The notes: a model not told the origin generated them from the letters alone. Shown: positions 3,553 to 18,322, counted from the stretch's first letter. The stretch is DNA of 32,000 bases from an archaeon (GCA_035400625.1 DAOMZT010000002.1:30001-62000); one strand, 5' to 3'. Translations and numbers: made by a program.

Positions 3553-6500
3553 TTATTTTCTTTTTCTCCTGTCTGTATAAATTAAAACAAATCCACTTAA
3601 TATTATTGTCATGTAAAGAATTGCCATGACTGTTGATTCTGGAGTTAAAGGAATATTAAAGCCACTACCGCCTTTTCCTGAACCGCCAGAACCAATATTA
3701 AACACATTAGTTCCAGGAGTTCCTACGACTTTGCCATTGCCATCAACCCCGAAAGAAACACCATCTTTAAATGCATCATTTAATGGGATAAGATTGCCAT
3801 TTGTTGTATACCAATTACCTGTCTCAGGATCATACCAAAAAGACCCGTTCTTTCCTTGAGCTGACATTAATGTTTCTTTATCTCCATTATAGGTAAGTCT
3901 AGGAACACCATCTTCTGCACTAAACTCTAGATTATGTGTTTTGCCATCATCTGTTTTTACTGAAATGCCATTTGGTGTTTGTTCAAAAGAGGATATTTTT
4001 GCATCATATATCTCACCAGTTTCTTTATCTATTATCTTTAGCCTTTGCTCACATTCTGGCGGATCACTTAGATAAAAGATAAAAGTTTTTGTCTTTGTAT
4101 CAAACATTTGGAAAGGTCCAACCTTTTCTAAAGCCTTGTTTAGCTTTTCTGTGTTTGCTGCTGCTTGGTCACTATCCTTTATTGGGGTTGTAGAAAAGTT
4201 AATACCTAGCTCTTCATTGTCACAACCATTTATTGCCTTGCTTTTTGTGACTTCTGCTTTAAGGCTTTTAATATCATTTCCACTTGTTTCTGTTGTTGTT
4301 TCTACCCACATGATATATGCCTTTGCTTCTTCACTATAAATTAGCTGACCAAACTCAAATTGTACACTTATATTTTTACCAATTGTATTGTCCTTACCAT
4401 CAATAGGCCCTATCGTTGTAGATCTATTTCCTAATACTGTTAATTTAGATCTATTGCCATTAGCAATCAATCTAGGAAGACCAGCACCTTGAGCAATAAT
4501 CGAGTTTCCTAAAAAACTAGTGGTGTATGCTCCTGCTGGATTAATATTATTTGTTACTTTTGTGGTTCCTAGATATGGAGTTAAATTCTTGCTTGTAGAA
4601 CTCATGGAAAGACCTGTTTGAGCCTCATAGCCAGCCCTTAGACAATCAAAAAATTCTGCATTTTTAACTGTTAGATTGCCATGAGCATCAATTTCAAATA
4701 ATGGGTCTGTGTTATTTGGTAATGGTATATAACTTAAACTACGAGGTATAACTTTAGCAGGGATACCCAAATTATCTCCTATTAGTCTTACAAAGTCTTT
4801 ACTCTTTTCGCCAATTACTGTTCTTGTTCCATTTTCATCAGTAACTGTTAAGATTCCTTTTTCTTTATCAATTGTAACATCTATGTTGGTGTCTTTGTCT
4901 TTTAGAATCTCAACACCTTTGTCATTATAACCGCTTGCCAAACATTTTGTTCTTGGACCAATTTCTATAAAGAAAAGTCTACCTTCTACTGATGTGTTAG
5001 ATATACCACCAGTTGTGAATGTTGCTTGAACTATTGGGTCTTCAATAATTTGTTCTTCAACATATTCTTTTACTTTTTCTGAACCTGCCTTTACTCCTTT
5101 TTCAAGTTCTGTTCCTGAAGTTATTTTGGAAATTGTATTTTCAACTTTGTTTGTTCCATCAATTATGGCTTCTCCTACTTTATTTTTTGAATCTTTAGAT
5201 TGTCTTTCTTCTTCTTGTGCAGAAACAAAGAAATGTGCATATAATCCTTCTTCATCATCGATACAGCCATGTATTTCTGGCATAATCATCGTTTGCATAG
5301 GGATATCACTTACAATTGCTGGACCAATAAATGAAATTAAATAACCCGAACCTGGGAAAACAATATATGCAAATTTTTGTGCAACTATAGAACCAGTAAC
5401 AAATCTGTGGTTTCTAAATGATTTAGGAATAACTTTGCCTATTGGCATACCTAACAAATTTAGGTTTGTAACTTTTTGCCCACAAGTTTCTCCTTTTTCT
5501 CTAGCTTCAATAAGATCTATTGCCTTATCTGTAGATTGTTTAGAGATTGTACCATCATAATCTGTATGATGGGAGAAAGATATAAGGGTTTGTCCTACTT
5601 TTCGATTTTTTTCAGAAGTGTTTTCTAATAAATAATTATTAGTTTTTATTCCGTCTGCAGTACTAGTAACAATACTTATTGATTTATAATCAACTTGACT
5701 TTTAAGTTTTGGCGTGCTTTCTTTTTTCTTTATAAAGTCTAATAAGCCTTTATCTTCTTCAATTTCCTTGTCTTTGTTCTTTTCTGCTGTTTCTTCATTT
5801 TCTTTATCTTCTGTTTCTTCCTTATTTTCTTTAGTTTCTTCCTTGTCTTCAGTAGTTTCTTTATCTTTATTTTTTTCATTTTCATTGTTTTTTTCTTTAG
5901 TTTCTTCTTTGTCTTCAGTAGTTTCTTTTTCTTTGTTTTTTTGAGCCTCTTCTGCGGCCTCTAGTTCCATAGCAGACAAAGAAGCATCCTTTGTTTTTTG
6001 ATCAATATAATTAGAACCGATATTAAATGTACAAGATCGATTATCACAACCCGAAGAAATATTGTTTGTAATCAATACGATATCATCAGTTTCTGATCTT
6101 CTTATTTGACCTTGGAATCTGTCTTTCAAAAAATCAACTGTTGCATCAGACCAGTCAGCCCCTATTTCTTCTGTTACTTTCATAGATACTGTAGTAAACC
6201 AAAATAGCACAGAGTTAAGATATTTCATAAAAAGATCTCCTTGATCTGAACCTGTATTTGCAAAGAAATCAACATATGCATCTTTATATATCTCTTCTGT
6301 TTCTTTGTGTTTGATATGTAGAGCCGTATATGTTTCTGGTAACTGATACATTGACCATCTAGTTAATCCAATGGTGTCTCCAAATAATGTGGCGCCACCT
6401 GTCTTTATTTCCCAATATGCAAAGTTTAATCCAAAAACCATGGGGTTTTTAGTAAAAAATCTTTGATAAGATGCTCCATTATAATTCTTCATCCATTGAT

Positions 6501-8844
6501 TAATTATATCTCTTCCTCTTCCAGAAACCCACTCTTGATGACTCATGGTTTCTAGAACCTTATTTAAACGATTTGCAGTGTCCCCTATTTTTTTTACAGC
6601 ACTTACTCCATCTGCTGGAGACATTAAAATAGGAGTTGCAACTTCTAAAGGGTCTAAATCAAAATAACCTTTGCCATAAATTTCAGCAACAGTTTTGTTA
6701 TTTACTCTATCAATAATCACATCATCAATAAACATTTCTTTTCTAGAAGGGAAAATTTTCACATCTGTAACCGCAACACTTGCAAAGTATGATGGATCTA
6801 TATTTCCCAAAATTTCACTGTGTAAAACAGGACTGCCACTTACATATTCTATGAATTCAATCTGAGCATTAGGAACTACAGATATATAATGTTTAATTTC
6901 ATCTAAATTCATTATATTTATAATTTTTGTTCTATCTATTTCTTGAACAATAGGTCTTAATCTTTGTCTAGTTATTTCTATTCCATCTGTTGTCACTAAA
7001 TCTATATTATTTACTACTGCTGTTTTTTGTGCACCCTTAATTTTTAAACCGGTTTTGCCATTTCCAAACTCCCCTTTTTCAAATTCAAATAATTTCATTT
7101 CTTTACTAAAAGGGTCTGTAATTTTTTCTTTTCCATCTATCACATCAACTACATGTAATCTAGAAGTTCTGCCATCTGCGGTTCTATAGCGTGACAAATC
7201 AAATTCCTTTACACCTTTATTTCCTAATTCATCAATTATTTCAATACTTCTAGTTCTATTGTTTATTGGCCCAGAGTTATATAGTGCCTCTTTCCACTTA
7301 TATTTTGCATTTATATTTTCAAATGTAGTGCTTAACCTCGTAGTTGAGTATATTAAATCTTCTAATGCATCATATTCTTGTTTACTTAAGGTTCTAAGAA
7401 AATCATTAACATTTTCACCAGCAGTTATTGAAGCTAAATATTTATCTGTAACTTTTTTTGTTACAGGATCTGAAGCCTTTGATTGCAAAAATGCATGTGC
7501 TGCCTGATATTTGTCTGATAAAATTTGTGTAACATCTGTTGCTGCTCTTTTTTTTGGAGCAGATAGTTTTGCACCACTATCTGTTATCATTTCTTTAGAA
7601 AATTTACTTGTTGCCCCCGCACCACTTTGTGTTGCATCGATCATGCCATCAGTAAATTCTTCAATATCATATTTGTTTATGTTTCTTTGCAAAATTTCAT
7701 CGTGTGCTAAATTAAATTCTATAAATTTATCTACATCGTTTCTGTAATTTAATTTTGCCTTATATGCCTTACTTATTCTTCCGAAAGGGTCTCTAACTAA
7801 TAATTCTGGATCTTTTGTTAAGATATCTACAAAACCACCCTCTTTAATCCAACCTTTCTTTTTTAGAGTATTAATTGGTTTTAAGAATGCATTTTTAACG
7901 CCAGGTACATGAAATATTCTTGATGCAGCATTAAACAAAAAAGGAGATACAGAACTATACACCATATCTGCAGAAAAATATTGATTAAACATCTTATCAA
8001 ATAAAGAATAAGTATTAATATAACAATTTTCACCACTACATGTTGTTTGCATAGATACAGCAAAATTACTTGTTAAAGAAGTGTTACTTATAACTTTATC
8101 GCTAACTGATTGCCAAGTTTCAGTATCCATTGAATTTAGTTCATTATTTTGCATAGCCCCTTCTATTTTTTCTAGCTCGTAAGAAGACATATCTGAGAAC
8201 ATACCCAAATCTTCTTTACCAGGAATATCAGCATCATCATTTATTATTGTTTCTTTCATTCCTGCAATTAAATCTTTACCAACAACCGTTACTTCTTTAA
8301 AGAAACCGCCTACATTTGAAGCACTTAAGTCATTTTTTCTATATTGCCCAGGCATAGTAAGATAACAATCGCTATTGTTATTATCAAGATCACACCTGCC
8401 AATCCTTAGTGTTTCATTAAGATTAAGTCCGAAATCATAAGAGCCATAGCAAGTTTTGCCTATAAGCATAGGAACCTCAATAGCGTCCATTTGTTTAGAT
8501 GGAACTTGTAATTTTGCACCAACATCTCCTGATTTTGCATCAGTGTCTGCAACAATCAAATTGTTTTTATCTAATGTGTCTCTTTTTGTATTTTCTTCTT
8601 GATCTGAAGTAAGGGTGTCTGCAGAAAATCCCTTTGTTAATATTTCTCCCCATAAAGCATTAACTTCTTCCTTTGATAGCTCTTTAGTCATACAGCCATT
8701 GCCCCTGTCAAAGATAATGCCATCAGAACTAATTTCCTTTTCTGCAAAATAATAGTTATCAGGACTATACCCATATGCAAATATGCTATTACAGAAAAGC
8801 ATTAAAAAGAAAAAAATCCAAATTCTTTTGATTGTTTCATTCAT
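3553..8844 (-). CDS. giant (1763 aa) secreted/cell-surface protein with N-terminal signal peptide and C-terminal membrane anchor; no recognisable domains
   Basis: Uninterrupted 5.3-kb ORF. N-terminus KRIWIFFFLMLFCNSIFA-YG is signal-like. C-terminus is GSGGSGKGGSGFNIPLTPES + TVMAILYMTIILSGFVLIY + TDRRKRK. There is an internal E/K/T-rich linker. Confidence 0.8.
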   Translation of the reverse strand: MNETIKRIWIFFFLMLFCNSIFAYGYSPDNYYFAEKEISSDGIIFDRGNGCMTKELSKEEVNALWGEILTKGFSADTLTSDQEENTKRDTLDKNNLIVADTDAKSGDVGAKLQVPSKQMDAIEVPMLIGKTCYGSYDFGLNLNETLRIGRCDLDNNNSDCYLTMPGQYRKNDLSASNVGGFFKEVTVVGKDLIAGMKETIINDDADIPGKEDLGMFSDMSSYELEKIEGAMQNNELNSMDTETWQSVSDKVISNTSLTSNFAVSMQTTCSGENCYINTYSLFDKMFNQYFSADMVYSSVSPFLFNAASRIFHVPGVKNAFLKPINTLKKKGWIKEGGFVDILTKDPELLVRDPFGRISKAYKAKLNYRNDVDKFIEFNLAHDEILQRNINKYDIEEFTDGMIDATQSGAGATSKFSKEMITDSGAKLSAPKKRAATDVTQILSDKYQAAHAFLQSKASDPVTKKVTDKYLASITAGENVNDFLRTLSKQEYDALEDLIYSTTRLSTTFENINAKYKWKEALYNSGPINNRTRSIEIIDELGNKGVKEFDLSRYRTADGRTSRLHVVDVIDGKEKITDPFSKEMKLFEFEKGEFGNGKTGLKIKGAQKTAVVNNIDLVTTDGIEITRQRLRPIVQEIDRTKIINIMNLDEIKHYISVVPNAQIEFIEYVSGSPVLHSEILGNIDPSYFASVAVTDVKIFPSRKEMFIDDVIIDRVNNKTVAEIYGKGYFDLDPLEVATPILMSPADGVSAVKKIGDTANRLNKVLETMSHQEWVSGRGRDIINQWMKNYNGASYQRFFTKNPMVFGLNFAYWEIKTGGATLFGDTIGLTRWSMYQLPETYTALHIKHKETEEIYKDAYVDFFANTGSDQGDLFMKYLNSVLFWFTTVSMKVTEEIGADWSDATVDFLKDRFQGQIRRSETDDIVLITNNISSGCDNRSCTFNIGSNYIDQKTKDASLSAMELEAAEEAQKNKEKETTEDKEETKEKNNENEKNKDKETTEDKEETKENKEETEDKENEETAEKNKDKEIEEDKGLLDFIKKKESTPKLKSQVDYKSISIVTSTADGIKTNNYLLENTSEKNRKVGQTLISFSHHTDYDGTISKQSTDKAIDLIEAREKGETCGQKVTNLNLLGMPIGKVIPKSFRNHRFVTGSIVAQKFAYIVFPGSGYLISFIGPAIVSDIPMQTMIMPEIHGCIDDEEGLYAHFFVSAQEEERQSKDSKNKVGEAIIDGTNKVENTISKITSGTELEKGVKAGSEKVKEYVEEQIIEDPIVQATFTTGGISNTSVEGRLFFIEIGPRTKCLASGYNDKGVEILKDKDTNIDVTIDKEKGILTVTDENGTRTVIGEKSKDFVRLIGDNLGIPAKVIPRSLSYIPLPNNTDPLFEIDAHGNLTVKNAEFFDCLRAGYEAQTGLSMSSTSKNLTPYLGTTKVTNNINPAGAYTTSFLGNSIIAQGAGLPRLIANGNRSKLTVLGNRSTTIGPIDGKDNTIGKNISVQFEFGQLIYSEEAKAYIMWVETTTETSGNDIKSLKAEVTKSKAINGCDNEELGINFSTTPIKDSDQAAANTEKLNKALEKVGPFQMFDTKTKTFIFYLSDPPECEQRLKIIDKETGEIYDAKISSFEQTPNGISVKTDDGKTHNLEFSAEDGVPRLTYNGDKETLMSAQGKNGSFWYDPETGNWYTTNGNLIPLNDAFKDGVSFGVDGNGKVVGTPGTNVFNIGSGGSGKGGSGFNIPLTPESTVMAILYMTIILSGFVLIYTDRRKRK
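5745..5945 (-). repeat. low-complexity E/K/T/N-rich coding repeat inside the giant protein
   Basis: Encodes KEKETTEDKEETKEKNNENEKNKDKETTEDKEETKENKEETEDKENEETAEKNKDKEIEEDK. A 35-nt unit TTCTTTAGTTTCTTC(C/T)TTGTCTTCAGTAGTTTCTT occurs at 5827-5861 and 5893-5927, a 66-nt period with 1 mismatch. Confidence 0.85.
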
Positions 8845-8856
8845 TTCAATAACACC

Positions 8857-9393
8857 TTACATAAATATCAAATATATAATCATTGCAATCAATGATGGAA
8901 AAATAATCATTAAAAATAACAAAATAACAAACAAAACCATAGCAAAGCTCTTCCATAGCTCTATAAAAGACAGCTTTTCTGATTTTTGCTTTCTAGTTTT
9001 TTTCTTTTTTTCTTTTTTCTCCATAAAGGAATCATATAACATTGATATGAACATTGCAACAATAAATAACATGCCTGTAAATAAAAGATTTACTAGCAGT
9101 AACCTGCCTAATTGTATTAAAACAAACAATACTCCTTCAAAGAAAGTAAATGTTGAAAACTTATCTAGTATTGGTATAAAATAAATTAAAATAAGAACAA
9201 TATAAGTTATAATAAAAATAATAATAAACAAAGACTTTGCAAAACTTAGCTTTTTATCTTTCCTTAGCCAATTAAATTTTTTTTGGAAAAGATAGGTTAA
9301 GCCAATAAAGGGCAAAGATAATAAAGCACTAAATAATAATAACTTAATAAAAACCCACAAGTAATTTAATAAACTTAATAATATTTTGCTCAT
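8857..9393 (-). CDS. polytopic membrane protein (about 5 TM helices, Lys-rich cytoplasmic loop), unknown function
   Basis: Five long hydrophobic segments and a KKEKKKKTRKQKSEK loop. Its stop lies 12 nt upstream of the giant-protein start, so co-transcription is likely. Confidence 0.6.
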   Translation of the reverse strand: MSKILLSLLNYLWVFIKLLLFSALLSLPFIGLTYLFQKKFNWLRKDKKLSFAKSLFIIIFIITYIVLILIYFIPILDKFSTFTFFEGVLFVLIQLGRLLLVNLLFTGMLFIVAMFISMLYDSFMEKKEKKKKTRKQKSEKLSFIELWKSFAMVLFVILLFLMIIFPSLIAMIIYLIFM

Positions 9394-9491
9394 TATGTAC
9401 CCATTTATATATATTTTAGTTAAATATATATTAGCATAATAGTTTTTAAATATTATATACTATTATGTTTATAGGCAAAAGAGGAATAAAT

Positions 9492-10271
9492 ATGGATATT
9501 AAAAAAATAAAGAGAAGAGAACGTAGATTTTATAGGAAAATTGTAGATGGTAAAATAGTTTATAGTGATATACCTATAACTAAACCTAAAAAAGAAACAA
9601 AAGATGTAATTATTGAAAAAAAAGAAACAAAAATAAAAGTAACAAGAGAAATACCTGAAAAAACATTAAAATCTATAAAAGATAATAAGAAATTGAGTGC
9701 TACAGAAAAGCAACAAATTATAGATAAAATACTTATAGAATTAAAAAATGCAATAAATCCAGATATTGACGAAATTGCTGAAATGATTTATGCTCAATTA
9801 TCTGTAAGAGATGTCAATGTTACTCAAGAAAGCGTAAAACATGTTGTTCAAAATAATGCACACCATAGGAGTTCTAGAAAAAAAACTAAGAAAAACACAT
9901 CTTCACAAGATACAGACAAAACTAAAGAAAATTATGATTTCTTAAATGACAGAAAAGAACTAGAAAAAGTATTAGATGATGTTGTTGAAGAAAATAAAAA
10001 AGAAGACATTAGAGCAAAAACTAGAAAAGATAAATTAATTCAAAAAGTAATTCAAAAAGCAAAAGACAATCAAAAAGCAAAAGACAAGAAAAAAAAAGAA
10101 ACTATAAAAAAAACAGAAGAAGTAACAATTAAAAAAACAGAAGAAATCTCAAAAGAAAAACCCATAAAGAAGAAAGAGCCACCAAAACCTAAAAAAGAAG
10201 AATTTAAACTAGATTTTGGAGATATTGAAATAGATGAGACAGATACTGATGAATTGGGATTGAAGTTTTAA
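9492..10271 (+). CDS. Lys/Glu-rich highly charged protein, unknown function
   Basis: GAGG lies about 9 nt upstream of the ATG at 9492; the ORF-track start at 9465 is an alternative. Short tandem coding repeats: CAAAAAGCAAAAGACAA at 10053-10069 and 10071-10087, and KKTEEVTIKKTEEIS. Confidence 0.5.
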   Translation: MDIKKIKRRERRFYRKIVDGKIVYSDIPITKPKKETKDVIIEKKETKIKVTREIPEKTLKSIKDNKKLSATEKQQIIDKILIELKNAINPDIDEIAEMIYAQLSVRDVNVTQESVKHVVQNNAHHRSSRKKTKKNTSSQDTDKTKENYDFLNDRKELEKVLDDVVEENKKEDIRAKTRKDKLIQKVIQKAKDNQKAKDKKKKETIKKTEEVTIKKTEEISKEKPIKKKEPPKPKKEEFKLDFGDIEIDETDTDELGLKF

Positions 10272-11123
10272 TTAAGTTTGGTTGTTTTCTATTCCATTTA
10301 GAGAAGTAGAAGCAACTACTTCTTTACAATTTAATTTGATTAATGATTCACTATTTATATCAACAGTTGCAGGCCACATTGCAAAAGTAGAAGTAATAAC
10401 AATGTCTTCCTCTATACTCAATTCCTCATATGTGCTTTTATTGTGTGTAAAGGCTAATGGAATTGAAGAAGAGAAGATTTTTGAAGATTTAGAAACAACA
10501 GATCTTACATCTTCATAGCTTTCAGGAGCACAAAGATAATAATGATAAGGATTCTCTGCTAACCTATAATCTTTAACGCCTCTAACAGCATCTACCCTGC
10601 TTTGTCTATCAGTGTTTGATCCTTCTTGTTCTTGTATTACAAACTCTGTATTTTTTATTGTGAAATATACAAATCCTTCAGGAGATTTGTTTCTATAAAG
10701 ATAAAATAAATAATCTTGCGATTCTAATGGACGCATTGTTGCTTTAATTGTATGGAACAAATTGTATTTTGCAATATCTAAATAATTATCTGCATCTAAA
10801 TCATTCATATCTGAAAAACCAAGTTTTCCATGTGCATAATAGTCTTGTTTTACAAGAGCCATCAAATAATCGTTTTGTTTAGTTTTTTCCAAATTTAAAT
10901 CAAAATCTAAAGGCGCAGAAACATAAAAAATGGTTTTAAGAACAGAGTTTGTGTATTCTTTATAATATAGATCAGAACTTGCTTGTTCTATTCTGCTTCC
11001 ATATGTAGAAGAATACCTAAACATCAATACTGAAAGAGTTACAATTATAACTAAGAAAAATAAAGCATCTGTTATTGCTGCTTGACCTTTTCTTGTTTTT
11101 ATTCTTGTTATTTTCATTATCAT
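10272..11123 (-). CDS. class III signal-peptide (type IV pilin-like) protein, 283 aa, last gene of the pilus-like operon
   Basis: N-terminus MIMKITRIKTRKG-QAAITDALFFLVIIVTLSVLMF has a basic region, a [KR]G site and a hydrophobic helix. The start abuts the stop of the upstream gene (11123/11124). Confidence 0.6.
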   Translation of the reverse strand: MIMKITRIKTRKGQAAITDALFFLVIIVTLSVLMFRYSSTYGSRIEQASSDLYYKEYTNSVLKTIFYVSAPLDFDLNLEKTKQNDYLMALVKQDYYAHGKLGFSDMNDLDADNYLDIAKYNLFHTIKATMRPLESQDYLFYLYRNKSPEGFVYFTIKNTEFVIQEQEGSNTDRQSRVDAVRGVKDYRLAENPYHYYLCAPESYEDVRSVVSKSSKIFSSSIPLAFTHNKSTYEELSIEEDIVITSTFAMWPATVDINSESLIKLNCKEVVASTSLNGIENNQT

Positions 11124-11636
11124 CTATTTCCAAACTAAAATATATAACCATGCGGGCTCTACATAAAATTGTTGCTGAACAGTAATTGGGTATTTATAGA
11201 CAGTAACATCTTTTGTTAGTAGTGCATTTTTTAATTCTTCTAATCCCTCTGAATTACATATTAGTTTTCTAGGGTTGGTTCCGGTTTCTGCCCAATGTTT
11301 CATAATGTTTTCATCATCTAAATCTCCAACTGTTAATCCTTTATAATTATGACTATTTAGATCTAATGGAGTTACAAAAGCGTTCCAATTGTATTTTGTT
11401 TTTACTCTTTGACAGGTTTTTATAAATTGATTTTGATCTGAGATAATTGGGTTTTCTTTAATTATTCCTGAAATATTAATGGCATCGTTTCTTAAGGAAT
11501 AAAGGTCTGTGTTATTTCTGTAAACATTATATGTGTTTAAGAAAACAGCAAAGAAGATAGTTAGACCTACAAATATAGGTATTAAACTTGGGAGATCATC
11601 TCCAATTGCACCAATATATCCTTTTTTATTTTTCAT
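11124..11636 (-). CDS. class III signal-peptide-like (pilin-like) protein, 170 aa
   Basis: MKNKKG-YIGAIGDDLPSLIPIFVGLTIFFAVFL. 4-nt overlap with the upstream gene (11633-11636). Confidence 0.5.
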   Translation of the reverse strand: MKNKKGYIGAIGDDLPSLIPIFVGLTIFFAVFLNTYNVYRNNTDLYSLRNDAINISGIIKENPIISDQNQFIKTCQRVKTKYNWNAFVTPLDLNSHNYKGLTVGDLDDENIMKHWAETGTNPRKLICNSEGLEELKNALLTKDVTVYKYPITVQQQFYVEPAWLYILVWK

Positions 11637-12349
11637 GTCGTACCCTGTGTACTATTATTTGATGTTGATGTTGTAGCAGAATCTGTATAGTTTACTAAAT
11701 CATGAACAATATTCAAACAAGGAATTAATGTTTTTAAAGGGACCTGATCAGTTGATCCTGTTTCGTTTAAAAAATTTCTGCAAGTATATATGCCTTTTTT
11801 TTCAAGACAAGGGATTAAGAAAACTAAAGGTTTTCCATTTGAGATAATCTTTGCAAAAAGTATTTGTGAATCTATTGAATCTCTTCTAGAAGGATCAAAA
11901 TTAACTGAATAATTTGTTGCAGGCTTTATTTCACAATCTGGAAAATTAGCACAGCCTTCTGATTCATATAAAGCAATTGAGCCATTGTAATCTATATCGT
12001 AGGCAGCATAGATTTTTGGTTTTTCTTTTCTGTCCATTACAGTAAGCACTAATTTTTTTGCATCGCCACCTAGAGAATACGAAGAAACATTTAGTTTATA
12101 TCTCATATTGAAAGCATCAGAAGTGCCAGAATTTGTTTGTATTGTCTTTGGTATTGTTATGAATTTTACTGTACAATAGCTTTCGTTTTCTATTCCGGTC
12201 TTTATTTCTTTTCCTACTTTATAAACAAGTTCATAGCTTTGTCTTGTTTTCAGACTAGAATTAAATGTGCCAATAAAGAAAATTACTATTGCTGCAATTG
12301 CTGTAACAAAAATTAATAAATTTAATTTTGATAAAGAAAATTCAATCAT
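11633..12349 (-). CDS. N-terminally anchored extracytoplasmic protein of the pilus-like operon (no clear class III cleavage motif), 238 aa
   Basis: MIEFSLSKLNLLIFVTAIAAIVIFFIG helix, then a Cys-containing globular part and a Ser/Thr-rich tail. 2-nt gap to the upstream gene. Confidence 0.4.
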   Translation of the reverse strand: MIEFSLSKLNLLIFVTAIAAIVIFFIGTFNSSLKTRQSYELVYKVGKEIKTGIENESYCTVKFITIPKTIQTNSGTSDAFNMRYKLNVSSYSLGGDAKKLVLTVMDRKEKPKIYAAYDIDYNGSIALYESEGCANFPDCEIKPATNYSVNFDPSRRDSIDSQILFAKIISNGKPLVFLIPCLEKKGIYTCRNFLNETGSTDQVPLKTLIPCLNIVHDLVNYTDSATTSTSNNSTQGTT

Positions 12350-12351
12350 TT

Positions 12352-12951
12352 TTAATCAATCTTTTTTAAAAAACACAATTGTCTTGCAGAATCTGTTCCT
12401 ACTTGGCTTCTCATAAATATTCTATAATGTCCACTAGTTAATATAGCGTTTGGGTTATTGCCTCCAAAATTTAAAGCATCCCATTCCTCATCATTATATT
12501 CATTACCACAGTCTCCTAAATTAGCATAATTTATAGCGGTAGGGAGATTAAGACACATTGGAGCTATTGGTCGCTTTGTTGTTTTTTTATCTTCATAGAC
12601 ATATTCCATTAAGGTGCAAGTATCTCCTGCATTACAATAGGAATTACAAAGTGTTTCGTTATGATAGGTCTTTAAGGTAATTTTTTCAAACCTCTCGTTA
12701 AAGCAAGGCTGTATATCAAATTTTACATTTTTTTCTGCAAGTTCTGAACCCATAATAATATCTTCAATTACTCCTTTCATTTCGCTCATGCTTTGTCGTT
12801 TATTACCAATACACACACTTTGGTTAAGATTTATTAATGCCCAGGTACCTGCCATAATTACAAAGCCCATAAGAATGACAGCTACAAGAACTTCAAAAGG
12901 TGCGCTTGCTTGAGCCTTATTACTTCTAATCAAAGATATATTTTTATTCAT
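12352..12951 (-). CDS. Cys-rich class III signal-peptide (pilin-like) protein, 199 aa
   Basis: MNKNISLIRSNKA-QASAPFEVLVAVILMGFVIMAG. Eight cysteines in the predicted external domain. Confidence 0.6.
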   Translation of the reverse strand: MNKNISLIRSNKAQASAPFEVLVAVILMGFVIMAGTWALINLNQSVCIGNKRQSMSEMKGVIEDIIMGSELAEKNVKFDIQPCFNERFEKITLKTYHNETLCNSYCNAGDTCTLMEYVYEDKKTTKRPIAPMCLNLPTAINYANLGDCGNEYNDEEWDALNFGGNNPNAILTSGHYRIFMRSQVGTDSARQLCFLKKID

Positions 12952-12991
12952 CTTAGAAATAGATATAGAAAAAGAATTTAAAAAGCTTTGT

Positions 12992-13222
12992 TTATTTTGT
13001 TGCAGGAGGGGAATTGACTGTTGGTGTAGAAGAGGTTCCTTGGTTTGGCAAATCTGCTACATTAACTGAAGTTTTCATACTGCTATTAAACATAGGTTTA
13101 ATGACAGCAATTAGGACAAGAGCAACTATAGCTATGATAATAAGCATATAGAGGGTTGAAGCACCATCTCCCTGTGCCCTTTTATCAAGCCATAATCTCT
13201 TAAGCTCTTGTTTAAAGTTCAT
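12992..13222 (-). CDS. small class III signal-peptide protein (PF04021-like short pilin), 76 aa
   Basis: LDKRA-QGDGASTLYMLIIIAIVALVLIAVI followed by a short Ser/Thr/Pro tail. Its size and layout match the small archaeal class III signal peptide family as I recall it. Confidence 0.6.
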   Translation of the reverse strand: MNFKQELKRLWLDKRAQGDGASTLYMLIIIAIVALVLIAVIKPMFNSSMKTSVNVADLPNQGTSSTPTVNSPPATK

Positions 13223-13232
13223 TTATATCACT

Positions 13233-13796
13233 TTATGCTGTTTTCTTTGGATAAATTACACAACCTGTTTCTCCACTTTCAGGAAAACCATTTCTTCCAT
13301 CAGTAGGTTGGCTTGGCCACTCTGCATCTGAAAGAGAAGTATTTGAACTTCCCATTAATTCATTAGCTTTAATTGCTTCATCCAATCCAGCTTTTCCATT
13401 ACTGGAACACAAAACACAAAGAACTACTCTTTTAGAAGATGTTCCTGTATATTTTAAGATTGCTTTTGCATTGCCTGTAGCATTAAAATTGCTTATGTTA
13501 TCTATTTCATTTGTAAAGAAAACTTGTTCAGGATCTAATCCTGTGTCTTTAGTTACTCCTTCTGCAGCAAGGGTGTTGGCCTTTTTAAATGTTACAGCAT
13601 CAGTACAATCTACTGAACCTGGATTTTGCATTTGGGTTTTTAATTTTTGTGTTGCTGCTGTTTTTGCATCCCCAGAAACCGTATTTATTCCGCCTATAAC
13701 AGAAATCAAAACACCAAGTATTGCAAGCGCAACAATTGCAGCAATAAGCAACTGGAATGTTGAAGATGCTTGTCCTTTCTTTGTTAATTTAAACAT
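13233..13796 (-). CDS. type IV pilin-like protein, candidate major subunit, 187 aa
   Basis: MFKLTKKG-QASSTFQLLIAAIVALAILGVLISVI. AAGGTGA lies about 10 nt upstream of the ATG, and an AT-box sits in the 90-nt upstream gap. Paralogous to the C-terminal domain of 13887-14654. Confidence 0.7.
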   Translation of the reverse strand: MFKLTKKGQASSTFQLLIAAIVALAILGVLISVIGGINTVSGDAKTAATQKLKTQMQNPGSVDCTDAVTFKKANTLAAEGVTKDTGLDPEQVFFTNEIDNISNFNATGNAKAILKYTGTSSKRVVLCVLCSSNGKAGLDEAIKANELMGSSNTSLSDAEWPSQPTDGRNGFPESGETGCVIYPKKTA

Positions 13797-13886
13797 GATT
13801 TATTTTCACCTTTTTTCTTTTTTTATAAAATATAAATATATTAATGAAATAATATTAACAAAATCTTTTTAAAGCTTGTTATGTAT
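13797..13886 (-). promoter_or_regulatory. candidate internal promoter and RBS for the major pilin gene
   Basis: This is the largest gap in the operon (90 nt). Read on the minus strand it contains ATATATTTATATTTTATAAAAAAAG (TATA-like), followed by AAGGTGA and then the ATG. Confidence 0.35.
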
Positions 13887-14654
13887 TTAGTTTGTACTTG
13901 TTTTTCTAGGATAAACTGCACAAAGGATTTTTTCATCTGTTGTTGAATTTATTGTGGTGTTTATGTCATGTGCCTGAAGAGCTTTTTCTAACCCTGTTTT
14001 GCCATTATCGCAAAGAACACACATCATTACTCTCTTTGAGCTACTCGCTCCATATTTTAAAATATTGTCTTTTGTATCAAAATTAGGTATATTTTCTGGA
14101 TTAATAAAATAAACTTGTTCTGGGCCTAAACCTGTAGTTATGGTTATGCCTTCTTCTATAAGTGTAGATCTAGATTTTGTAAATAGAATAGGATCCGTAC
14201 AGCCCTCTGCACCTAGATTGTTAATTTGATCTTTTATAAGCATTCTTGTGGCCTTTGTAGGGGTGCTTCTACAAGCTATTACAGTCATCATATTTGTAAT
14301 TATTATTGCTAAAATAATTGAGATTACTAATTTTGCAATAAAATTAAATTTATAGTTTCTAATTTTTTTAAAAAATAAACCAACTACCCAAAATAATAAA
14401 TAAAAGACAATATATGATACTGCAAAAATAAATGTTGCAGTAAAAATAAAATTAATTACGTGATTGTTAAAAACACCAGCAATAGGAAACAAAAAAACAG
14501 TTATAACATATAATACAGATACAAATAAACTACCAATTAAAAAAGAACTATCTAGTTTTTTATAAAAATCTGTATTGTGTTTTGTAGATACATTTTCTTT
14601 TTCTAATACAGAATCAATATATTCTTGATCTTCTTTTTTTTTGATATTTTCCAT
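13887..14654 (-). CDS. pilin-domain paralogue fused to an N-terminal polytopic membrane extension, 255 aa
   Basis: The C-terminal 130 aa align with 13233-13796 (CTD..F.K....EG.T..TGL.PEQV.F.N...I.NF......ILKY...SSKRV..CVLC..GK.GL..A......C..YP.KT). The N-terminal 125 aa contain 3-4 hydrophobic helices and no [KR]G-Q site. Confidence 0.55.
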   Translation of the reverse strand: MENIKKKEDQEYIDSVLEKENVSTKHNTDFYKKLDSSFLIGSLFVSVLYVITVFLFPIAGVFNNHVINFIFTATFIFAVSYIVFYLLFWVVGLFFKKIRNYKFNFIAKLVISIILAIIITNMMTVIACRSTPTKATRMLIKDQINNLGAEGCTDPILFTKSRSTLIEEGITITTGLGPEQVYFINPENIPNFDTKDNILKYGASSSKRVMMCVLCDNGKTGLEKALQAHDINTTINSTTDEKILCAVYPRKTSTN

Positions 14655-14698
14655 TTATGAAAACCCTCATAAACTATATAATTTTTCTTAATTTGAAA

Positions 14699-15205
14699 CT
14701 ATATTATAGCATGAGCTAAATTAAATATATAGACTAATATTGATGGCAACACAGCCATTAAAAGAACATCCCAGCCATTTAATTTATCTGGAGTGCTTTT
14801 ATAATCGTCCCAAAGATATCTGTGTTGCTTTGTGTGTTTCTTTATGTGTAATAGATACCATAATATGCCAAAGATTAAAACAGTAACAACCCAAACAACA
14901 CTAAAAGCCACAGTTTTATTTATCTGTAATAAAAATTTACCAAAAAACAACCATAAAAGACTAATTATACCATATGTTGCAGCCATAGAAAACACTGACT
15001 TAAAGATAAGCTTTGCTGTATTACTTTTAAACAAACTTACAAGATTATTAAATAACCAGATGATTACAAACAACAAAGTCATCAAAACTAATAATACAAA
15101 TATAATTGTCAAGATAAAGGTTCCAACAACAAAGCCAAGTATAAGTATAATGATTGCTAAAAAAATAAATAAAATTTTAGTGAAGATGTTCATATGTTTT
15201 TTCAC
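14699..15205 (-). CDS. polytopic membrane protein (4-5 TM), unknown role in the pilus-like operon
   Basis: Almost entirely hydrophobic helices. Same strand as, and flanked by, operon genes. An overlapping plus-strand ORF (14832-15221) looks like a shadow ORF. Confidence 0.45.
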   Translation of the reverse strand: MKKHMNIFTKILFIFLAIIILILGFVVGTFILTIIFVLLVLMTLLFVIIWLFNNLVSLFKSNTAKLIFKSVFSMAATYGIISLLWLFFGKFLLQINKTVAFSVVWVVTVLIFGILWYLLHIKKHTKQHRYLWDDYKSTPDKLNGWDVLLMAVLPSILVYIFNLAHAII

Positions 15206-15261
15206 ATTTTCATGTATTTAATTACTATATTAATAGTTGGAATTGTTTATAAACATTAATC

Positions 15262-15804
15262 TTATGGATTGGAAGTGTAAAGACCCTCTGGTGGTTTAAT
15301 ATTAAAGAAAAACACACAATATGTTGGACAAACACTTGTATCTTGAGTAAGCTGGCTTTGTGTGGTAGAATCTAATTCATCTAGTAGTGATCCTTCCCCA
15401 GATGGCATAAAATTACAATATGCCCAAACATTCATTTTCAGATGCCTTGTTTTTATTCTTAAAACATTATAGTCGTTTACTGAAAAAAGCTTTGGGCCAG
15501 CAACAAAAGCCATGCATTCTTCTGGCAAACCTGTATAATTTGTAATTGTTGTCTTTGAAATATTCCCTTTAAGCATTAAGTCCTCAATAACAAAAGGAGT
15601 TTTCGCGCTTGTCCCTGTGCTTTTAACGGCAGAGATAAGACCTTCTTTTAGTTTCTGGTTGCTTACTATTATTAATTGATTTTGGGTGCTATTAATCATA
15701 TTCATAATAATAACAAGAATTGCTGCACCAAGAATAAACCCGATAAGTAGCCTATAGGCTTCAGAAGCTGAATCATCTCCTTTTTGATTTAATTTTAAAT
15801 TCAT
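15262..15804 (-). CDS. class III signal-peptide (pilin-like) protein, distant paralogue of the 13233 and 13887 pilin domains, 180 aa
   Basis: MNLKLNQKG-DDSASEAYRLLIGFILGAAILVII. Shares NQKLK and TGLPEEC.AF with the TQKLK and TGLDPEQVFF of the major pilin candidate. ATGA start/stop overlap with the platform gene. Confidence 0.55.
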   Translation of the reverse strand: MNLKLNQKGDDSASEAYRLLIGFILGAAILVIIMNMINSTQNQLIIVSNQKLKEGLISAVKSTGTSAKTPFVIEDLMLKGNISKTTITNYTGLPEECMAFVAGPKLFSVNDYNVLRIKTRHLKMNVWAYCNFMPSGEGSLLDELDSTTQSQLTQDTSVCPTYCVFFFNIKPPEGLYTSNP

Positions 15805-18023
15805 AATACCAAATTTGCTATTATTATAGTTAATATAAACAAAACAACTGCAACTGGAAGAGTTTGCGATATCCTGTATTTTACTAATGTCATATTTTCT
15901 TGTTCAATCATTGTTGTAAAATAAGTCATTATTAGAACAATCTCAATCAAATAAATTGCAACAATAATAGTAAAAGAAGTTGCACTTGCAAGCTTGCCAA
16001 TAACATCAACATTAATGGCCGTGCCAAAAGAAGATACAGCACTTAAATCCATTCCTAATTCTGCAAGATTTGTACTTTCTAAAGATTTTGCCATATCTTG
16101 TATCGCCCCAGAACTTGCAACAGAAGCCAGAGTAGAAATAACAACTTTATGAAGAGTTGTTGTTACACCAAGAATAATCGGACCAATAAACTTAGCCATA
16201 CTATTTAATGTTGCAGTAATCTCAGCAATGAGAACAGAAAGCAAACGATTAATCTCATCAGTATTTCTTAGTTGCATAGAATATGAGATTAAGGTTTTTG
16301 CAGCAACATTAACACCCATCTGCACAGAATCAACAACAAGTTGCATAGCACTATTAATTATTGTTGAAGGATTATTCTTTAATGCACCATAATTTCTATC
16401 AAAGACAGCAGATTGTAAAGTTAAACCAAGTATTCTGATATTATCAACAGTTTTGCCAAAAATATCCTTTGCTACAGTAGACTTTGGCAAAAACCTTCTA
16501 GTATGATCAAAAGCATCTTCAATTGGCTTGTTTTCTCCAAGTCTGCTTGCAATAATATAGAGTGAGTCTTTAAATTCTTTTTCTTGAGTTTCGGTTGCAA
16601 GTTGTATTTTTCTCTTATAGACACTTGTAGTGTACGCCCATAAAGAAATTGAAGCAGCAACTGCCAATAATATGGAAAAAATCAGATAATAAGGAGTTAT
16701 TGAATTTTTAGGGTCTTGCCAAAACCTTACTTCATCAGCACACATAAATGTAGGGTCTGCTAATTGTTGTTGCCTTTCTTCTCTTGTACAGTCCCAGTTT
16801 GGGGTGGCTGTGCCATGTTCCCTTTCTAGAATCTTTTCTTTGGTCATACCATAAGATTTTTGTAAAGTAAAGCCAATCGCAGTAAAACCTACTAGAAGTA
16901 TTGCAATAATTATAAAAACATTAATTTGAGTATTTTTAATTCTTAAATGATTCTTTTTTGGAAGTCCAGGAAAATCAGAAGGAATATTTGGTGGTTGGTA
17001 GGTTGGTGGCCTTTTTTTAATAACATTTCGAGCATATAAAAAACAAGCAAGTGGTATAAAAATATTATAAATTAAAATCAAATAAATTGGTTGAGCAAGA
17101 GCAGAACCAGAAAATGCTGAGCCGACAGGTAAAACAATAATCAATAATAATGGTAATAATATACCTAGATAAAACATAATTGTTGCTGGCTGATTTAAAG
17201 TTCTGGCATAGTCTTCAAGTTTGCCTTTTACAGAATCTAGAGTTTCAGACATAGTCTGATCAAGAAGCTGATATCTTTTGCTTTCTGAAGATTCAATAAT
17301 TGATGCTCTAATCTTCATTAATCCTTTCTTTAATTCTATAGAAATATCTCCCCAACGATAAGCCAAATCATCTAAACCTTCAGCAACACTGTTTTTTATT
17401 CCAACCTTTACTTCCCACAATAATTTTTTAAGATCTTCTGCAATCTTTCCATGTCCATGTTCTGAAGCAAACTCTATTGCTTTTTCTAGATTAGGAACTA
17501 GTTTCATAGACATTATCATATAACCTAATATCTCAGGAACAAAAGTTAGTGCCTTAATCTTCTCATCAGAAACTTTCTTTAAAGGATATCTTTGAACAGA
17601 AATAAAAGCAAAAATAAAAAGACCAAAAGGTATTCCAAAAATCAAGAATAAAGCCATCATTGAACTACCAAAGGCTTCAGATAATATACTATATAGAAAA
17701 AAATAAGATAAACCAGAAATTAACAAAGCAAGAAACAACCCTGCAAACAAAACAAACTTTGTTGTTGCTGTATATTCTTCTGCTGTTAAATCCCAATCAA
17801 GAAAATCAATTGCCTTTTGATATTCTTCATTGTATTTCCCATTAACTCCAAGGCTTGGAAACTTTTGATGAACCTTTTTACATAAAGTTACATATTTATT
17901 AGATGTTCTTTTTGTAAGCTTATCTGATGGTTTAGAAAAATCCCTGGAATCTACTGATATGGAACTATAAATTTCGCCAGGGTTCTCTACAGAAGCCTTG
18001 AATTTTTTATATTTATCAGACAT
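15801..18023 (-). CDS. FlaJ/TadC/PilC-like type IV filament platform protein (two T2SSF-like repeats), about 740 aa
   Basis: Polytopic protein with two helical cytoplasmic modules, each followed by TM helices: IKALTFVPEILGYMIMSMKLVPNLEKAIEFASEHGHGKIAEDLKKLLWEVKVG... and KDSLYIIASRLGENKPIEDAFDHTRRF...VFDRNYGALKNNPS.... The start is placed at ATG 18023 (MSDKYKKF). The ORF-track start at 18131 would run through the AT-rich promoter region. Confidence 0.7.
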   Translation of the reverse strand: MSDKYKKFKASVENPGEIYSSISVDSRDFSKPSDKLTKRTSNKYVTLCKKVHQKFPSLGVNGKYNEEYQKAIDFLDWDLTAEEYTATTKFVLFAGLFLALLISGLSYFFLYSILSEAFGSSMMALFLIFGIPFGLFIFAFISVQRYPLKKVSDEKIKALTFVPEILGYMIMSMKLVPNLEKAIEFASEHGHGKIAEDLKKLLWEVKVGIKNSVAEGLDDLAYRWGDISIELKKGLMKIRASIIESSESKRYQLLDQTMSETLDSVKGKLEDYARTLNQPATIMFYLGILLPLLLIIVLPVGSAFSGSALAQPIYLILIYNIFIPLACFLYARNVIKKRPPTYQPPNIPSDFPGLPKKNHLRIKNTQINVFIIIAILLVGFTAIGFTLQKSYGMTKEKILEREHGTATPNWDCTREERQQQLADPTFMCADEVRFWQDPKNSITPYYLIFSILLAVAASISLWAYTTSVYKRKIQLATETQEKEFKDSLYIIASRLGENKPIEDAFDHTRRFLPKSTVAKDIFGKTVDNIRILGLTLQSAVFDRNYGALKNNPSTIINSAMQLVVDSVQMGVNVAAKTLISYSMQLRNTDEINRLLSVLIAEITATLNSMAKFIGPIILGVTTTLHKVVISTLASVASSGAIQDMAKSLESTNLAELGMDLSAVSSFGTAINVDVIGKLASATSFTIIVAIYLIEIVLIMTYFTTMIEQENMTLVKYRISQTLPVAVVLFILTIIIANLVL

Positions 18024-18130
18024 TATACATCTATTTTTTAATAATAAAATATATTTATAGAGGAAAGAAACATTTAAATACATGTTTATTTTATATTTTA
18101 TTAATGTAATAAAAATTAAGGAGCGATTCA
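18024..18130. promoter_or_regulatory. divergent promoter region (pilus-like operon versus ferredoxin operon)
   Basis: 107-nt AT-rich gap with several TATA-like boxes (TTTAAATA, ATATATTTATA). TAAGGAG lies 7 nt upstream of the ferredoxin ATG. Confidence 0.4.
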
Positions 18131-18322
18131 ATGGGATTTAAAATCATACAAGATAAAAACAAATGTGTGGGTTGTGGAGCTTGTGTTGCTGTTTGCCCAG
18201 ATAATTGGGTACACCAAGGCGATAAACCCGTACCAAAAAAAGTAAAAATTACAGAAATAGGCTGTAACCAGGTTGCTGCAGATAGTTGCCCGGTTTCTTG
18301 TATAAAGATTGAAAAAGAATGA
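18131..18322 (+). CDS. small single-cluster 4Fe-4S (or 3Fe-4S) ferredoxin
   Basis: 63 aa with CVGCGACVAVCP plus a distal SCPVSC. Strong SD upstream. Confidence 0.85.
   Translation: MGFKIIQDKNKCVGCGACVAVCPDNWVHQGDKPVPKKVKITEIGCNQVAADSCPVSCIKIEKE

Follow-up and report, generated by a model that had tools for sequence, protein, structure and literature searches.

A giant, putatively membrane-anchored protein family of Iainarchaeota encoded beside a type IV pilin-like operon

What does a protein of 1763 residues do when it matches no known domain and its gene stands beside a set of pilin-like genes? This question is raised by a 32,000-nucleotide stretch of archaeal DNA (GCA_035400625.1, DAOMZT010000002.1:30001-62000; hereafter the window), which is AT-rich (~30% GC) and carries a giant open reading frame (ORF) at 3553..8844 on the minus strand, with the gene of a small polytopic membrane protein, tm178 (8857..9393, minus strand), directly on its 5' side. 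An original prediction had described the giant as an orphan surface protein paired with tm178 and placed next to a pilus-like operon. The analysis presented here identifies it as a new protein family, structurally uncharacterised, in a role of a known general kind, that of the large surface protein found in archaeal type IV pilus (T4P) loci. With slightly better than even confidence, we propose that the giant is a Sec-exported, C-terminally anchored accessory of the type IV pilus of Candidatus Iainarchaeota, serving as an adhesin or envelope module together with a partner of about four transmembrane (TM) helices. By a similarly narrow balance of probability, the pilus module would be Tad/Epd-like, with the giant as its large cell-surface component, an arrangement so far found only in Iainarchaeota.

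The ORF listing and the translation agree on a product of 1763 aa (196 kDa, isoelectric point 5.1). Its sequence features are those of an exported type I membrane protein, some 1700 residues of which lie outside the cell as the ectodomain. Residues 1-23 (8776..8844, minus strand) form a putative Sec-type signal peptide with a K/R n-region, a hydrophobic core and an NSIFA/Y cleavage-like site, the slash marking the cut. The N-terminus reads MNETIKRIWIFFFLMLFCNSIFA/YG, its hydrophobic 19-mer peak spans residues 4-26, and the N(S/P)xFA/Y motif is kept across family N-termini. This N-terminus displays the n-, h- and c-regions of a Sec-type signal and no class III (prepilin) motif. The giant would not be a pilus subunit, because it lacks a class III signal, and its candidacy as a type IV pilin or other class III signal protein was rejected on account of the Sec-type N-terminus; the neighbouring genes do carry the prepilin motif.

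The C-terminal end (3553..3729, minus strand) comprises a Gly/Ser-rich spacer, a conserved N-[IL]-P-x-x-P-E motif, a TM helix at residues 1737-1758, an RRKRK tail and the stop codon. It reads GSGGSGKGGSGFNIPLTPE, followed by the helix (Kyte-Doolittle value 2.18) and then RRKRK. The signal-like N-terminus, Gly-rich spacer, TM helix and basic tail that had been pointed out originally are thus all seen in translation and hydropathy. In the window, the juxtamembrane string is NIPLTPE; its family form, N[IL]P[SL]xPE, is kept in nearly all Iainarchaeota loci recovered and decays in the most distant relatives. Of all the ORFs in 58 fetched loci, only giants have N[IL]PxxPE ahead of a TM helix. A general sorting signal is therefore unsupported within these loci, and NCBIfam sorting-domain models gave no match at E <= 1. 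Comparison with archaeosortase-type systems likewise shows a tripartite C-terminus and no NCBIfam sorting model at that threshold, and the alignment of partner orthologues shows no conserved Cys/Arg/His triad in the ~4-TM protein. Beyond the signal peptide the mature giant contains 14 Cys, 11 of them invariant in the closer-clade alignment, and N-glycosylation sequons are not enriched (19 observed versus ~18 expected).

The gene is real, conserved and under purifying selection. Because an identical giant ORF occurs on 24 contigs of the collection, with the three places shown representing different samples, misassembly and frameshifting are excluded. The existence of full-length homologues and a dN/dS of 0.18 for the whole gene against a close relative at dS 0.40 dispose of the chimera concern in the same way.

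The description of the giant as an orphan did not hold. A word-indexed search returned 27 full-length relatives (1617-1772 aa, 37-100% identity), of which few carry a name, these being 'archaeon', 'Candidatus Diapherotrites' and 'Candidatus ainarchaeum'. When one genome per GTDB species was scanned with a pattern, 52 species-level loci came up, among them those of two complete genomes, AR10 and Ca. Forterrea multitransposorum, and of the Ca. Iainarchaeum andersonii single-cell assembly. Where the titles of these loci name an organism, it is always Iainarchaeota or its synonym Diapherotrites, a phylum of the kingdom Nanobdellati (DPANN); many titles say only 'archaeon'. One giant locus was recovered per species genome, and one was detected in each of the two complete genomes matched. 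A search seeded with AR10 added 36 more distant members (1389-1609 aa). A HMMER profile of the N-terminal 1200 residues, run against 1.84 billion cluster representatives, matched 130 proteins at E <= 0.001, counted among representatives clustered at 50% identity. Ten of the weakest long matches (1076-1355 aa, from GC-richer lineages) were inspected and share the same motif order and termini; the three that carry a name are all 'Candidatus Diapherotrites archaeon'. A homology search with a mixed alignment, limited to scoring the 8000 candidates with most words in common, yielded hardly anything beyond known members, and a plasmid tblastn gave no match. The family thus appears confined to Iainarchaeota as far as sampled, and conserved over the sampled breadth of the phylum. 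As far as could be found, it is undescribed in the literature.

Gene order suggests the functional context. Upstream of tm178 lies a pilin-like operon (10272..15804, minus strand), whose products show class III (prepilin-type) N-termini followed by a hydrophobic helix (KG/QASSTFQLLIAAIVA..., KA/QASAPFEVLVAV..., RKG/QAAITDALFFLVIIV... and KKG/YIGAIGDDLPSLIPIF...). None of its genes has a Pfam match. The operon is headed by a polytopic FlaJ/TadC/PilC-like platform protein of 776 aa with 9-10 TM helices (15801..18131, minus strand). Pfam T2SSF matches four of eight members of this platform family (best E = 2.2e-5), with the window copy below significance. In all 37 species-level loci whose upstream flank reaches 4 kb or more, a BLAST map places pilin-like orthologues in the same order and on the same strand, at a distance of 1.3-3.9 kb upstream of the giant, so that the link to the pilin-like operon is much stronger than a first reading could know. 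Two genes always stand between the pilin operon and the giant in the loci examined: an opposite-strand gene, which in the window encodes a K/R/E-rich protein of 268 aa (9465..10271, plus strand), and then a small polytopic gene, present before the giant in 11 of 11 loci.

The deepest member examined, locus L059, preserves this arrangement even though its giant was matched only at E = 1e-12. Its upstream part consists of a T2SSF-like gene (precomputed annotation 'T2SSF (faint)'), five pilin-like genes, the opposite-strand gene, a small polytopic ORF and the giant, after which come DUF473, PAC2, two T2SSF genes and a ferredoxin-fused T2SSE gene. Downstream neighbours change among clades, and only the window's clade has the class II lysyl-tRNA synthetase gene (LysRS; 2007-3500 in the window, 3' of the giant) next to the giant. 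The genes that follow the giant in AR10 and I. andersonii lie on the opposite strand and encode PAC2, two TadB/C-like T2SSF proteins and a T2SSE ATPase; the Pfam assignments come from AR10, the I. andersonii genes being positionally equivalent. By conserved co-location with pilin, T2SSF and T2SSE genes, the giant belongs to a type IV filament gene cluster, as a putative accessory component. The block of pilins, opposite-strand gene, small TM gene and giant survives rearrangement of its surroundings, which as read from these sequences is the main evidence for a functional module. The combined pilus and surface-protein module that had been considered plausible is substantially strengthened by this persistence across the sampled breadth of the phylum.

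Such conservation might also be explained without any functional link, if the giant were a conserved surface protein unrelated to the pilus that has stayed next to its genes through inherited synteny. This explanation gains something from LysRS, AP endonuclease-like, ferredoxin and PAC2 genes, which are also syntenic over part of the phylum. Those adjacencies break between clades, however, whereas the block does not, and both neighbours in question are envelope components. We therefore attach only a small probability to a purely historical association.

The internal anatomy of the giant was defined from family alignments and a conservation profile of 29 sequences, together with AlphaFold2 (AF2) models of two pieces split at residues 955/1036, each built with a 63-sequence alignment. 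Confident parts of the models are an all-beta portion of the C-terminal piece (~1295-1695) and a central helical bundle plus beta domain (~373-763). Confidence is low exactly at the most conserved motif regions. This suggests that, if the models are a fair guide, these regions fold together or with partners, in a way missed by the split.

A conserved Cys-rich N-terminal region (residues ~45-320; 7885..8712, minus strand) contains the invariant C51, C151, C160, C269 and C274 and the motif CYINTYSLFDKMFNQ, and is modelled with low confidence. It is followed by a fast-evolving central module (residues 321-760; 6565..7884, minus strand), in which a helical bundle precedes a beta-rich domain (~530-715); the modelled bundle helices span ~281-511 and thus start inside the preceding conserved region. 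This module is the least conserved part of the protein and is modelled well, with a predicted local distance difference test (pLDDT) score mostly of 83-96. The next conserved region (residues 761-945; 6010..6564, minus strand) carries WVSGRGRD, YQLPETY, YVDFFANxGSDQGDLF and the C933/C938 pair. It also anchors the most distant homologues, and AF2 confidence is again low there.

Residues 946-1040 (5725..6009, minus strand) form an E/K/T-rich low-complexity linker. As noticed originally, it is the sole repetitive stretch of the giant: Tandem Repeats Finder reports degenerate ~35-nt units at 5748-5938 that encode it. It is not a family feature, being an insertion specific to the window's clade that shows 74-93% gaps in the 29-sequence alignment and is absent from most members. 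The linker seems hard to assemble and is probably variable in length. In L013, an 88%-identical homologue in a metagenome-assembled genome, an N-run at ~12900-13100 falls exactly at the linker, and a second contig of that genome (L009) carries the C-terminal part of the giant again.

A further conserved region (residues 1041-1210; 5215..5724, minus strand) includes GQTLISFSHHTDYDG, a G/A/S-rich hydrophobic segment and the motif C1194-V/I-D-x-E/x-E-G-x-Y-x-H. Behind it comes a predicted helical hairpin (residues ~1211-1268; 5041..5214, minus strand), assigned by DSSP from the AF2 model with moderate confidence. The membrane-proximal all-beta domain or domains (residues ~1269-1705; 3730..5040, minus strand) are the most conserved part of the family, with pLDDT > 90 for ~1295-1695 and a conservation peak at 1561-1720.

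Selection follows the same division. Against the relative at dS 0.40, dN/dS is 0.02 for residues 1561-1729, 0.03-0.17 for the other conserved parts and 0.33-0.34 for the central module. The central module is relaxed, without overall positive selection. Self-BLAST of the giant found no internal repeat, and profile self-comparison found none in the C-terminal beta region, in line with the earlier statement that periodic Ig-, PKD- or cadherin-like repeats are lacking.

Searches against known families and folds were consistently negative. The giant has no Pfam, NCBIfam or PHROGs match, as its description as a protein without recognisable domains implied, and a Pfam search of the 29 family members at E <= 1 gave no recurrent weak match. 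Neither the single protein nor the family profile matched any PDB sequence. For the N-terminal part, the best Foldseek match in the PDB had E = 0.5, and none was credible. The C-terminal part matched Kelch, WD40 and YWTD propellers only locally; a beta-propeller fold was rejected given template modelling scores <= 0.15, a root-mean-square deviation of ~20 Å and no repeated blades in the profile self-comparison. Foldseek matches in BFVD were similarly poor. Neither sequence comparison nor fold comparison with solved and viral structures, the confidently modelled parts included, thus detected any relative of the family.

These results bear directly on the reading of the giant as the main S-layer lattice protein of Iainarchaeota, with a C-terminal helix anchor and a pilus adjacency that merely reflects clustering of envelope genes. 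Several properties would suit such a protein. It is large, acidic, Sec-exported and held by a C-terminal TM anchor behind a Gly/Ser spacer; one locus occurs per recovered species genome, both complete genomes included; and it combines a conserved membrane-proximal part with variable distal parts, like many S-layer proteins. Makarova et al. moreover call such proteins of T4P loci 'S-layer-like' (PMC4858521). However, S-layer families gave no Pfam or NCBIfam match, none consistent among the 29 members at E <= 1 and no Foldseek S-layer chain, so that a homology check on AF2 models and family profiles matched no known S-layer or adhesin family; Ig-like or beta-sandwich arrays were not detected in the giant either. 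Unenriched sequons, 14 mature Cys, a ~230-residue helical bundle and invariant His/Asp/Glu motifs are atypical, and phylum-wide invariance of motifs is unusual among lattice proteins. Nor is the giant a strong monocistronic gene: it comes second in its unit, after the gene of a small membrane protein. We regard the lattice reading as unlikely, though less so than the other rivals.

The same invariant motifs raise the possibility of a membrane-tethered extracellular enzyme, for instance a metal-dependent hydrolase acting on polymers or the envelope, with a site formed by SHHTDYDG, C-V-D-x-E-E-G-x-Y-x-H and FFANxGSDQGDLF. Invariant His, Asp, Glu and Cys do cluster in these three motifs, most of them survive in homologues at E = 1e-4 to 1e-28, and the motif regions are under strong purifying selection. 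On the other hand, no catalytic family was found by sequence, profile or fold, and the size of the protein and its conserved pilus linkage would go unexplained. The poor modelling of the motif regions means that active-site geometry cannot be assessed from the present models. An enzymatic role is accordingly rated improbable.

The hydrophobic segment (~35 aa within residues 1148-1190; 5275-5403, minus strand) deserves separate consideration. Rich in Gly, Ala, Ser, Thr and aromatic residues and kept in 29 of 29 aligned members, it precedes an invariant Cys-x-Asp and then the predicted hairpin, and its composition is fusion-peptide-like. Its interpretation as a TM hairpin was rejected, since the family-averaged hydropathy of 1.1-1.4 is below that of a typical TM helix. 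A contact-dependent device for membrane insertion or fusion could be imagined in which, after approach by the pilus, the segment and hairpin open a bridge into the partner membrane. The universal retention of the segment, its position before the Cys, hairpin and C-terminal anchor, and the intimate cell-cell contacts formed by DPANN archaea (PMC11329633) are compatible with this idea. Nevertheless, its whole basis is composition and architecture, and the segment may just be part of a buried core. No class I, II or III fusogen or fusexin turned up in the Foldseek searches of PDB and BFVD, a test weakened by the poor modelling around the segment, and there is an argument, cited in PMC5905446, that Iainarchaeota live freely. 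Such a device is highly improbable. Nearly as remote is the wider form of the idea, in which the giant, the ~4-TM partner and the pilus constitute a previously unrecognised archaeal cell-contact apparatus, the pilus drawing a partner near and the segment and hairpin inserting into or bridging its membrane. If true, one DPANN phylum would have its own class of contact or fusion protein, new in structure.

The favoured reading, an accessory of the type IV pilus, can be put in mechanistic terms as follows. The tm178-giant unit would be transcribed as a bicistronic message with the giant as second cistron, and the giant would be exported by Sec and retained in the membrane through its C-terminal helix. 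The ultra-conserved membrane-proximal beta domain and the N(I/L)PxxPE motif may then engage invariant partners, which could be the ~4-TM protein, the pilus machinery or both. The fast-evolving central helical and beta module would face outward, exposed to ligands or the environment. In this arrangement, the giant might act with the pilus in attachment or in cell-cell or surface contact, or as an envelope element where or through which the pilus operates.

Several points weigh against this proposal. All that ties the giant to the pilus is gene neighbourhood, and within that neighbourhood the opposite-strand gene splits the giant's operon from the pilin operon. The partial synteny of the unrelated AP_endonuc_2, Fer4 (ferredoxin) and PAC2 genes counts here as well: because synteny in the phylum is generally conservative, some of the pilus linkage is possibly historical rather than functional. 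Sequence and Foldseek searches found no adhesin, lectin, Ig, vWA or other fold of known function, and the conserved His/Asp/Glu/Cys motifs look more enzyme- or machine-like than those of a typical adhesin. The host-interaction role suggested in the original prediction likewise stays an analogy, with no adhesin, lectin, Ig or S-layer fold detected. A role at the surface and with the pilus is, furthermore, deduced from sequence rather than from expression, localisation or interaction evidence. Finally, Iainarchaeota are uncultured, and whether they live freely or as symbionts is disputed (PMC5905446).

Comparison with described systems places the family more precisely. Large proteins with a C-terminal anchor, termed 'S-layer-like' or adhesins, are common in archaeal T4P loci (Makarova, Koonin & Albers 2016, PMC4858521), and T4P 'dark matter' islands with surface proteins have been noted in DPANN archaea (PMC6393860). 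The giant resembles the 'S-layer-like' proteins in being large, Sec-exported and C-terminally anchored, in its conserved Cys and in its position beside pilins and FlaJ/TadC-like genes, and in both cases function has been deduced from context alone. It differs in showing no sequence or fold relation to the described arCOG, Pfam and PDB families tested. Its family appears restricted to one phylum, and is much larger in size, always accompanied by a small polytopic gene and marked by invariant His/Asp/Glu/Cys motifs.

PilY1/DUF2341 adhesins and bacterial TadG are also big non-pilin proteins tied genetically to a type IV filament and proposed to act in adhesion or anchoring. Unlike the PilY1/DUF2341 proteins, the giant contains no DUF2341, vWA or beta-propeller domain, and it is anchored by a C-terminal TM helix, whereas PilY1 is held by association with the pilus tip. 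TadG of bacterial Tad loci has an N-terminal anchor, in contrast to the C-terminal helix of the giant. Archaeal S-layer glycoproteins, such as those of Haloferax (PGF-CTERM) and Methanococcales, share the signal peptide, large acidic ectodomain, flexible spacer, C-terminal helix and basic tail, but the giant shows no PGF motif, sorting-signal match or Ig-like repeats, its sequons are unenriched and it is Cys-rich.

Other very large, membrane-anchored DPANN proteins with a suspected part in cell-cell interaction are the nanohaloarchaeal SPEARE proteins and the >1800-aa proteins of Forterrea. SPEARE proteins are giants in which serine protease, adhesion and restriction-endonuclease domains occur together, whereas no protease, nuclease or adhesion domain was detected in the giant described here. 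In contrast to both groups, the present family is core, with one locus detected per genome, and neither variable nor multi-copy. The Forterrea genome paper lists five membrane-anchored proteins >1800 aa, and the Forterrea homologue of the giant (L024, 1629 aa) is not among them (PMC5905446).

The interest of the family lies in its setting. Envelope building and cell contact in DPANN archaea are largely obscure, and Iainarchaeota have no cultured member. The giant is a core gene that takes up 5.3 kb of a small genome (the complete Iainarchaeota genomes here are ~0.8-1.2 Mb), and it is the most obvious candidate for a surface structure working with the pilus. The gene is useful as a marker for Iainarchaeota, too, and its product as a structural target that may hold new folds. 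Even if it proved to be only an S-layer protein or an accessory adhesin, a blank in models of archaeal T4P loci would be filled.

The small partner encoded at 8857..9393 has 178 aa, about four TM helices and two basic cytoplasmic loops, and gave no significant Pfam, NCBIfam or PHROGs match. Its positional orthologues at nine other loci (163-187 aa) align end to end at 16-49% identity and share one hydrophobic/basic pattern; L059 also has a small polytopic ORF (9420-10082) that ends in FPWW..LWYYIP, like the family consensus. The original prediction was right about the gene, its 12-nt spacing and its tight coupling to the giant, and the pair proved to be conserved in relatives. The predicted number of TM helices is more likely four than the five proposed there, because the basic loops 37-52 and 122-145 would both be cytoplasmic by the positive-inside rule, with both termini outside.

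The spacer between the two genes (8845..8856, minus strand) is 12 nt long and contains a GGTG Shine-Dalgarno-like motif 8 nt before the giant ATG; spacing is 12-25 nt in the homologous loci read. The promoter of the unit is probably formed by an AT-rich divergent intergenic region (9394..9464, minus strand), where TATA-like elements occur at 9421-9430 and 9404-9413, although at the local GC content of ~23% TATA-like strings are common and this promoter evidence is weak. A T-run and another TATA-like string lie between the giant stop codon and LysRS. The simplest reading would be a bicistronic unit with the giant as second cistron, bearing in mind that AT-richness makes such motifs cheap. A bacterial promoter and terminator scan was uninformative, with fewer matches than in shuffles, and no tRNA or Rfam element was found within the window.

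The pilin operon is a separate transcription unit because the opposite-strand gene at 9465-10271 intervenes. Orthologues of this gene, conserved in position, were seen in the loci examined of both main clades (e.g., L042 6825-7733 and L050 7845-8603, both minus strand). They share an N-terminal (P)RRxRRFYR-like motif, and the AR10 orthologue has C-terminal zinc ribbons. The product possibly regulates the module from the cytoplasm or is a cytoplasmic part of it.

Within the pilin operon, a short pilin of 76 aa (12992-13222, minus strand) has a prepilin-like N-terminal helix, KRAQG/DGASTLYMLIIIAIVALVLIAVI, and hardly anything else apart from a brief Ser/Thr/Pro tail. Similar to the short Flp pilins of Tad systems and kept in most recovered loci, it may be the major filament subunit. 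A 255-aa gene (13887-14654, minus strand) has a globular C-terminal half paralogous to that of a 187-aa pilin-like gene (13233-13796, minus strand) and a long polytopic N-terminal extension instead of a prepilin signal. The operon also includes a 168-aa polytopic gene (14699-15205, minus strand), which by BLAST is kept only in the window's wider clade.

Two further observations concern the genes around the module. A gene for PAC2, a proteasome assembly chaperone-like protein, stands between the giant and the Tad-like T2SSF/T2SSE genes in L042 (16358-17104), L059 (14083-14820), L037, L026, L041 and L050. The T2SSE protein carries an N-terminal 4Fe-4S ferredoxin-like Cys-rich domain in L059 (16278-17825), where Pfam confirms it, and in L026 (18261-20006) and L041 (19733-21526), where the assignment comes from reading the N-termini. 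Type IV filament ATPases do not usually bear an Fe-S domain. Beside the T2SSF-like gene, and divergent from it, the window's clade has a separate ferredoxin-like ORF of 63 aa (18131-18322, plus strand).

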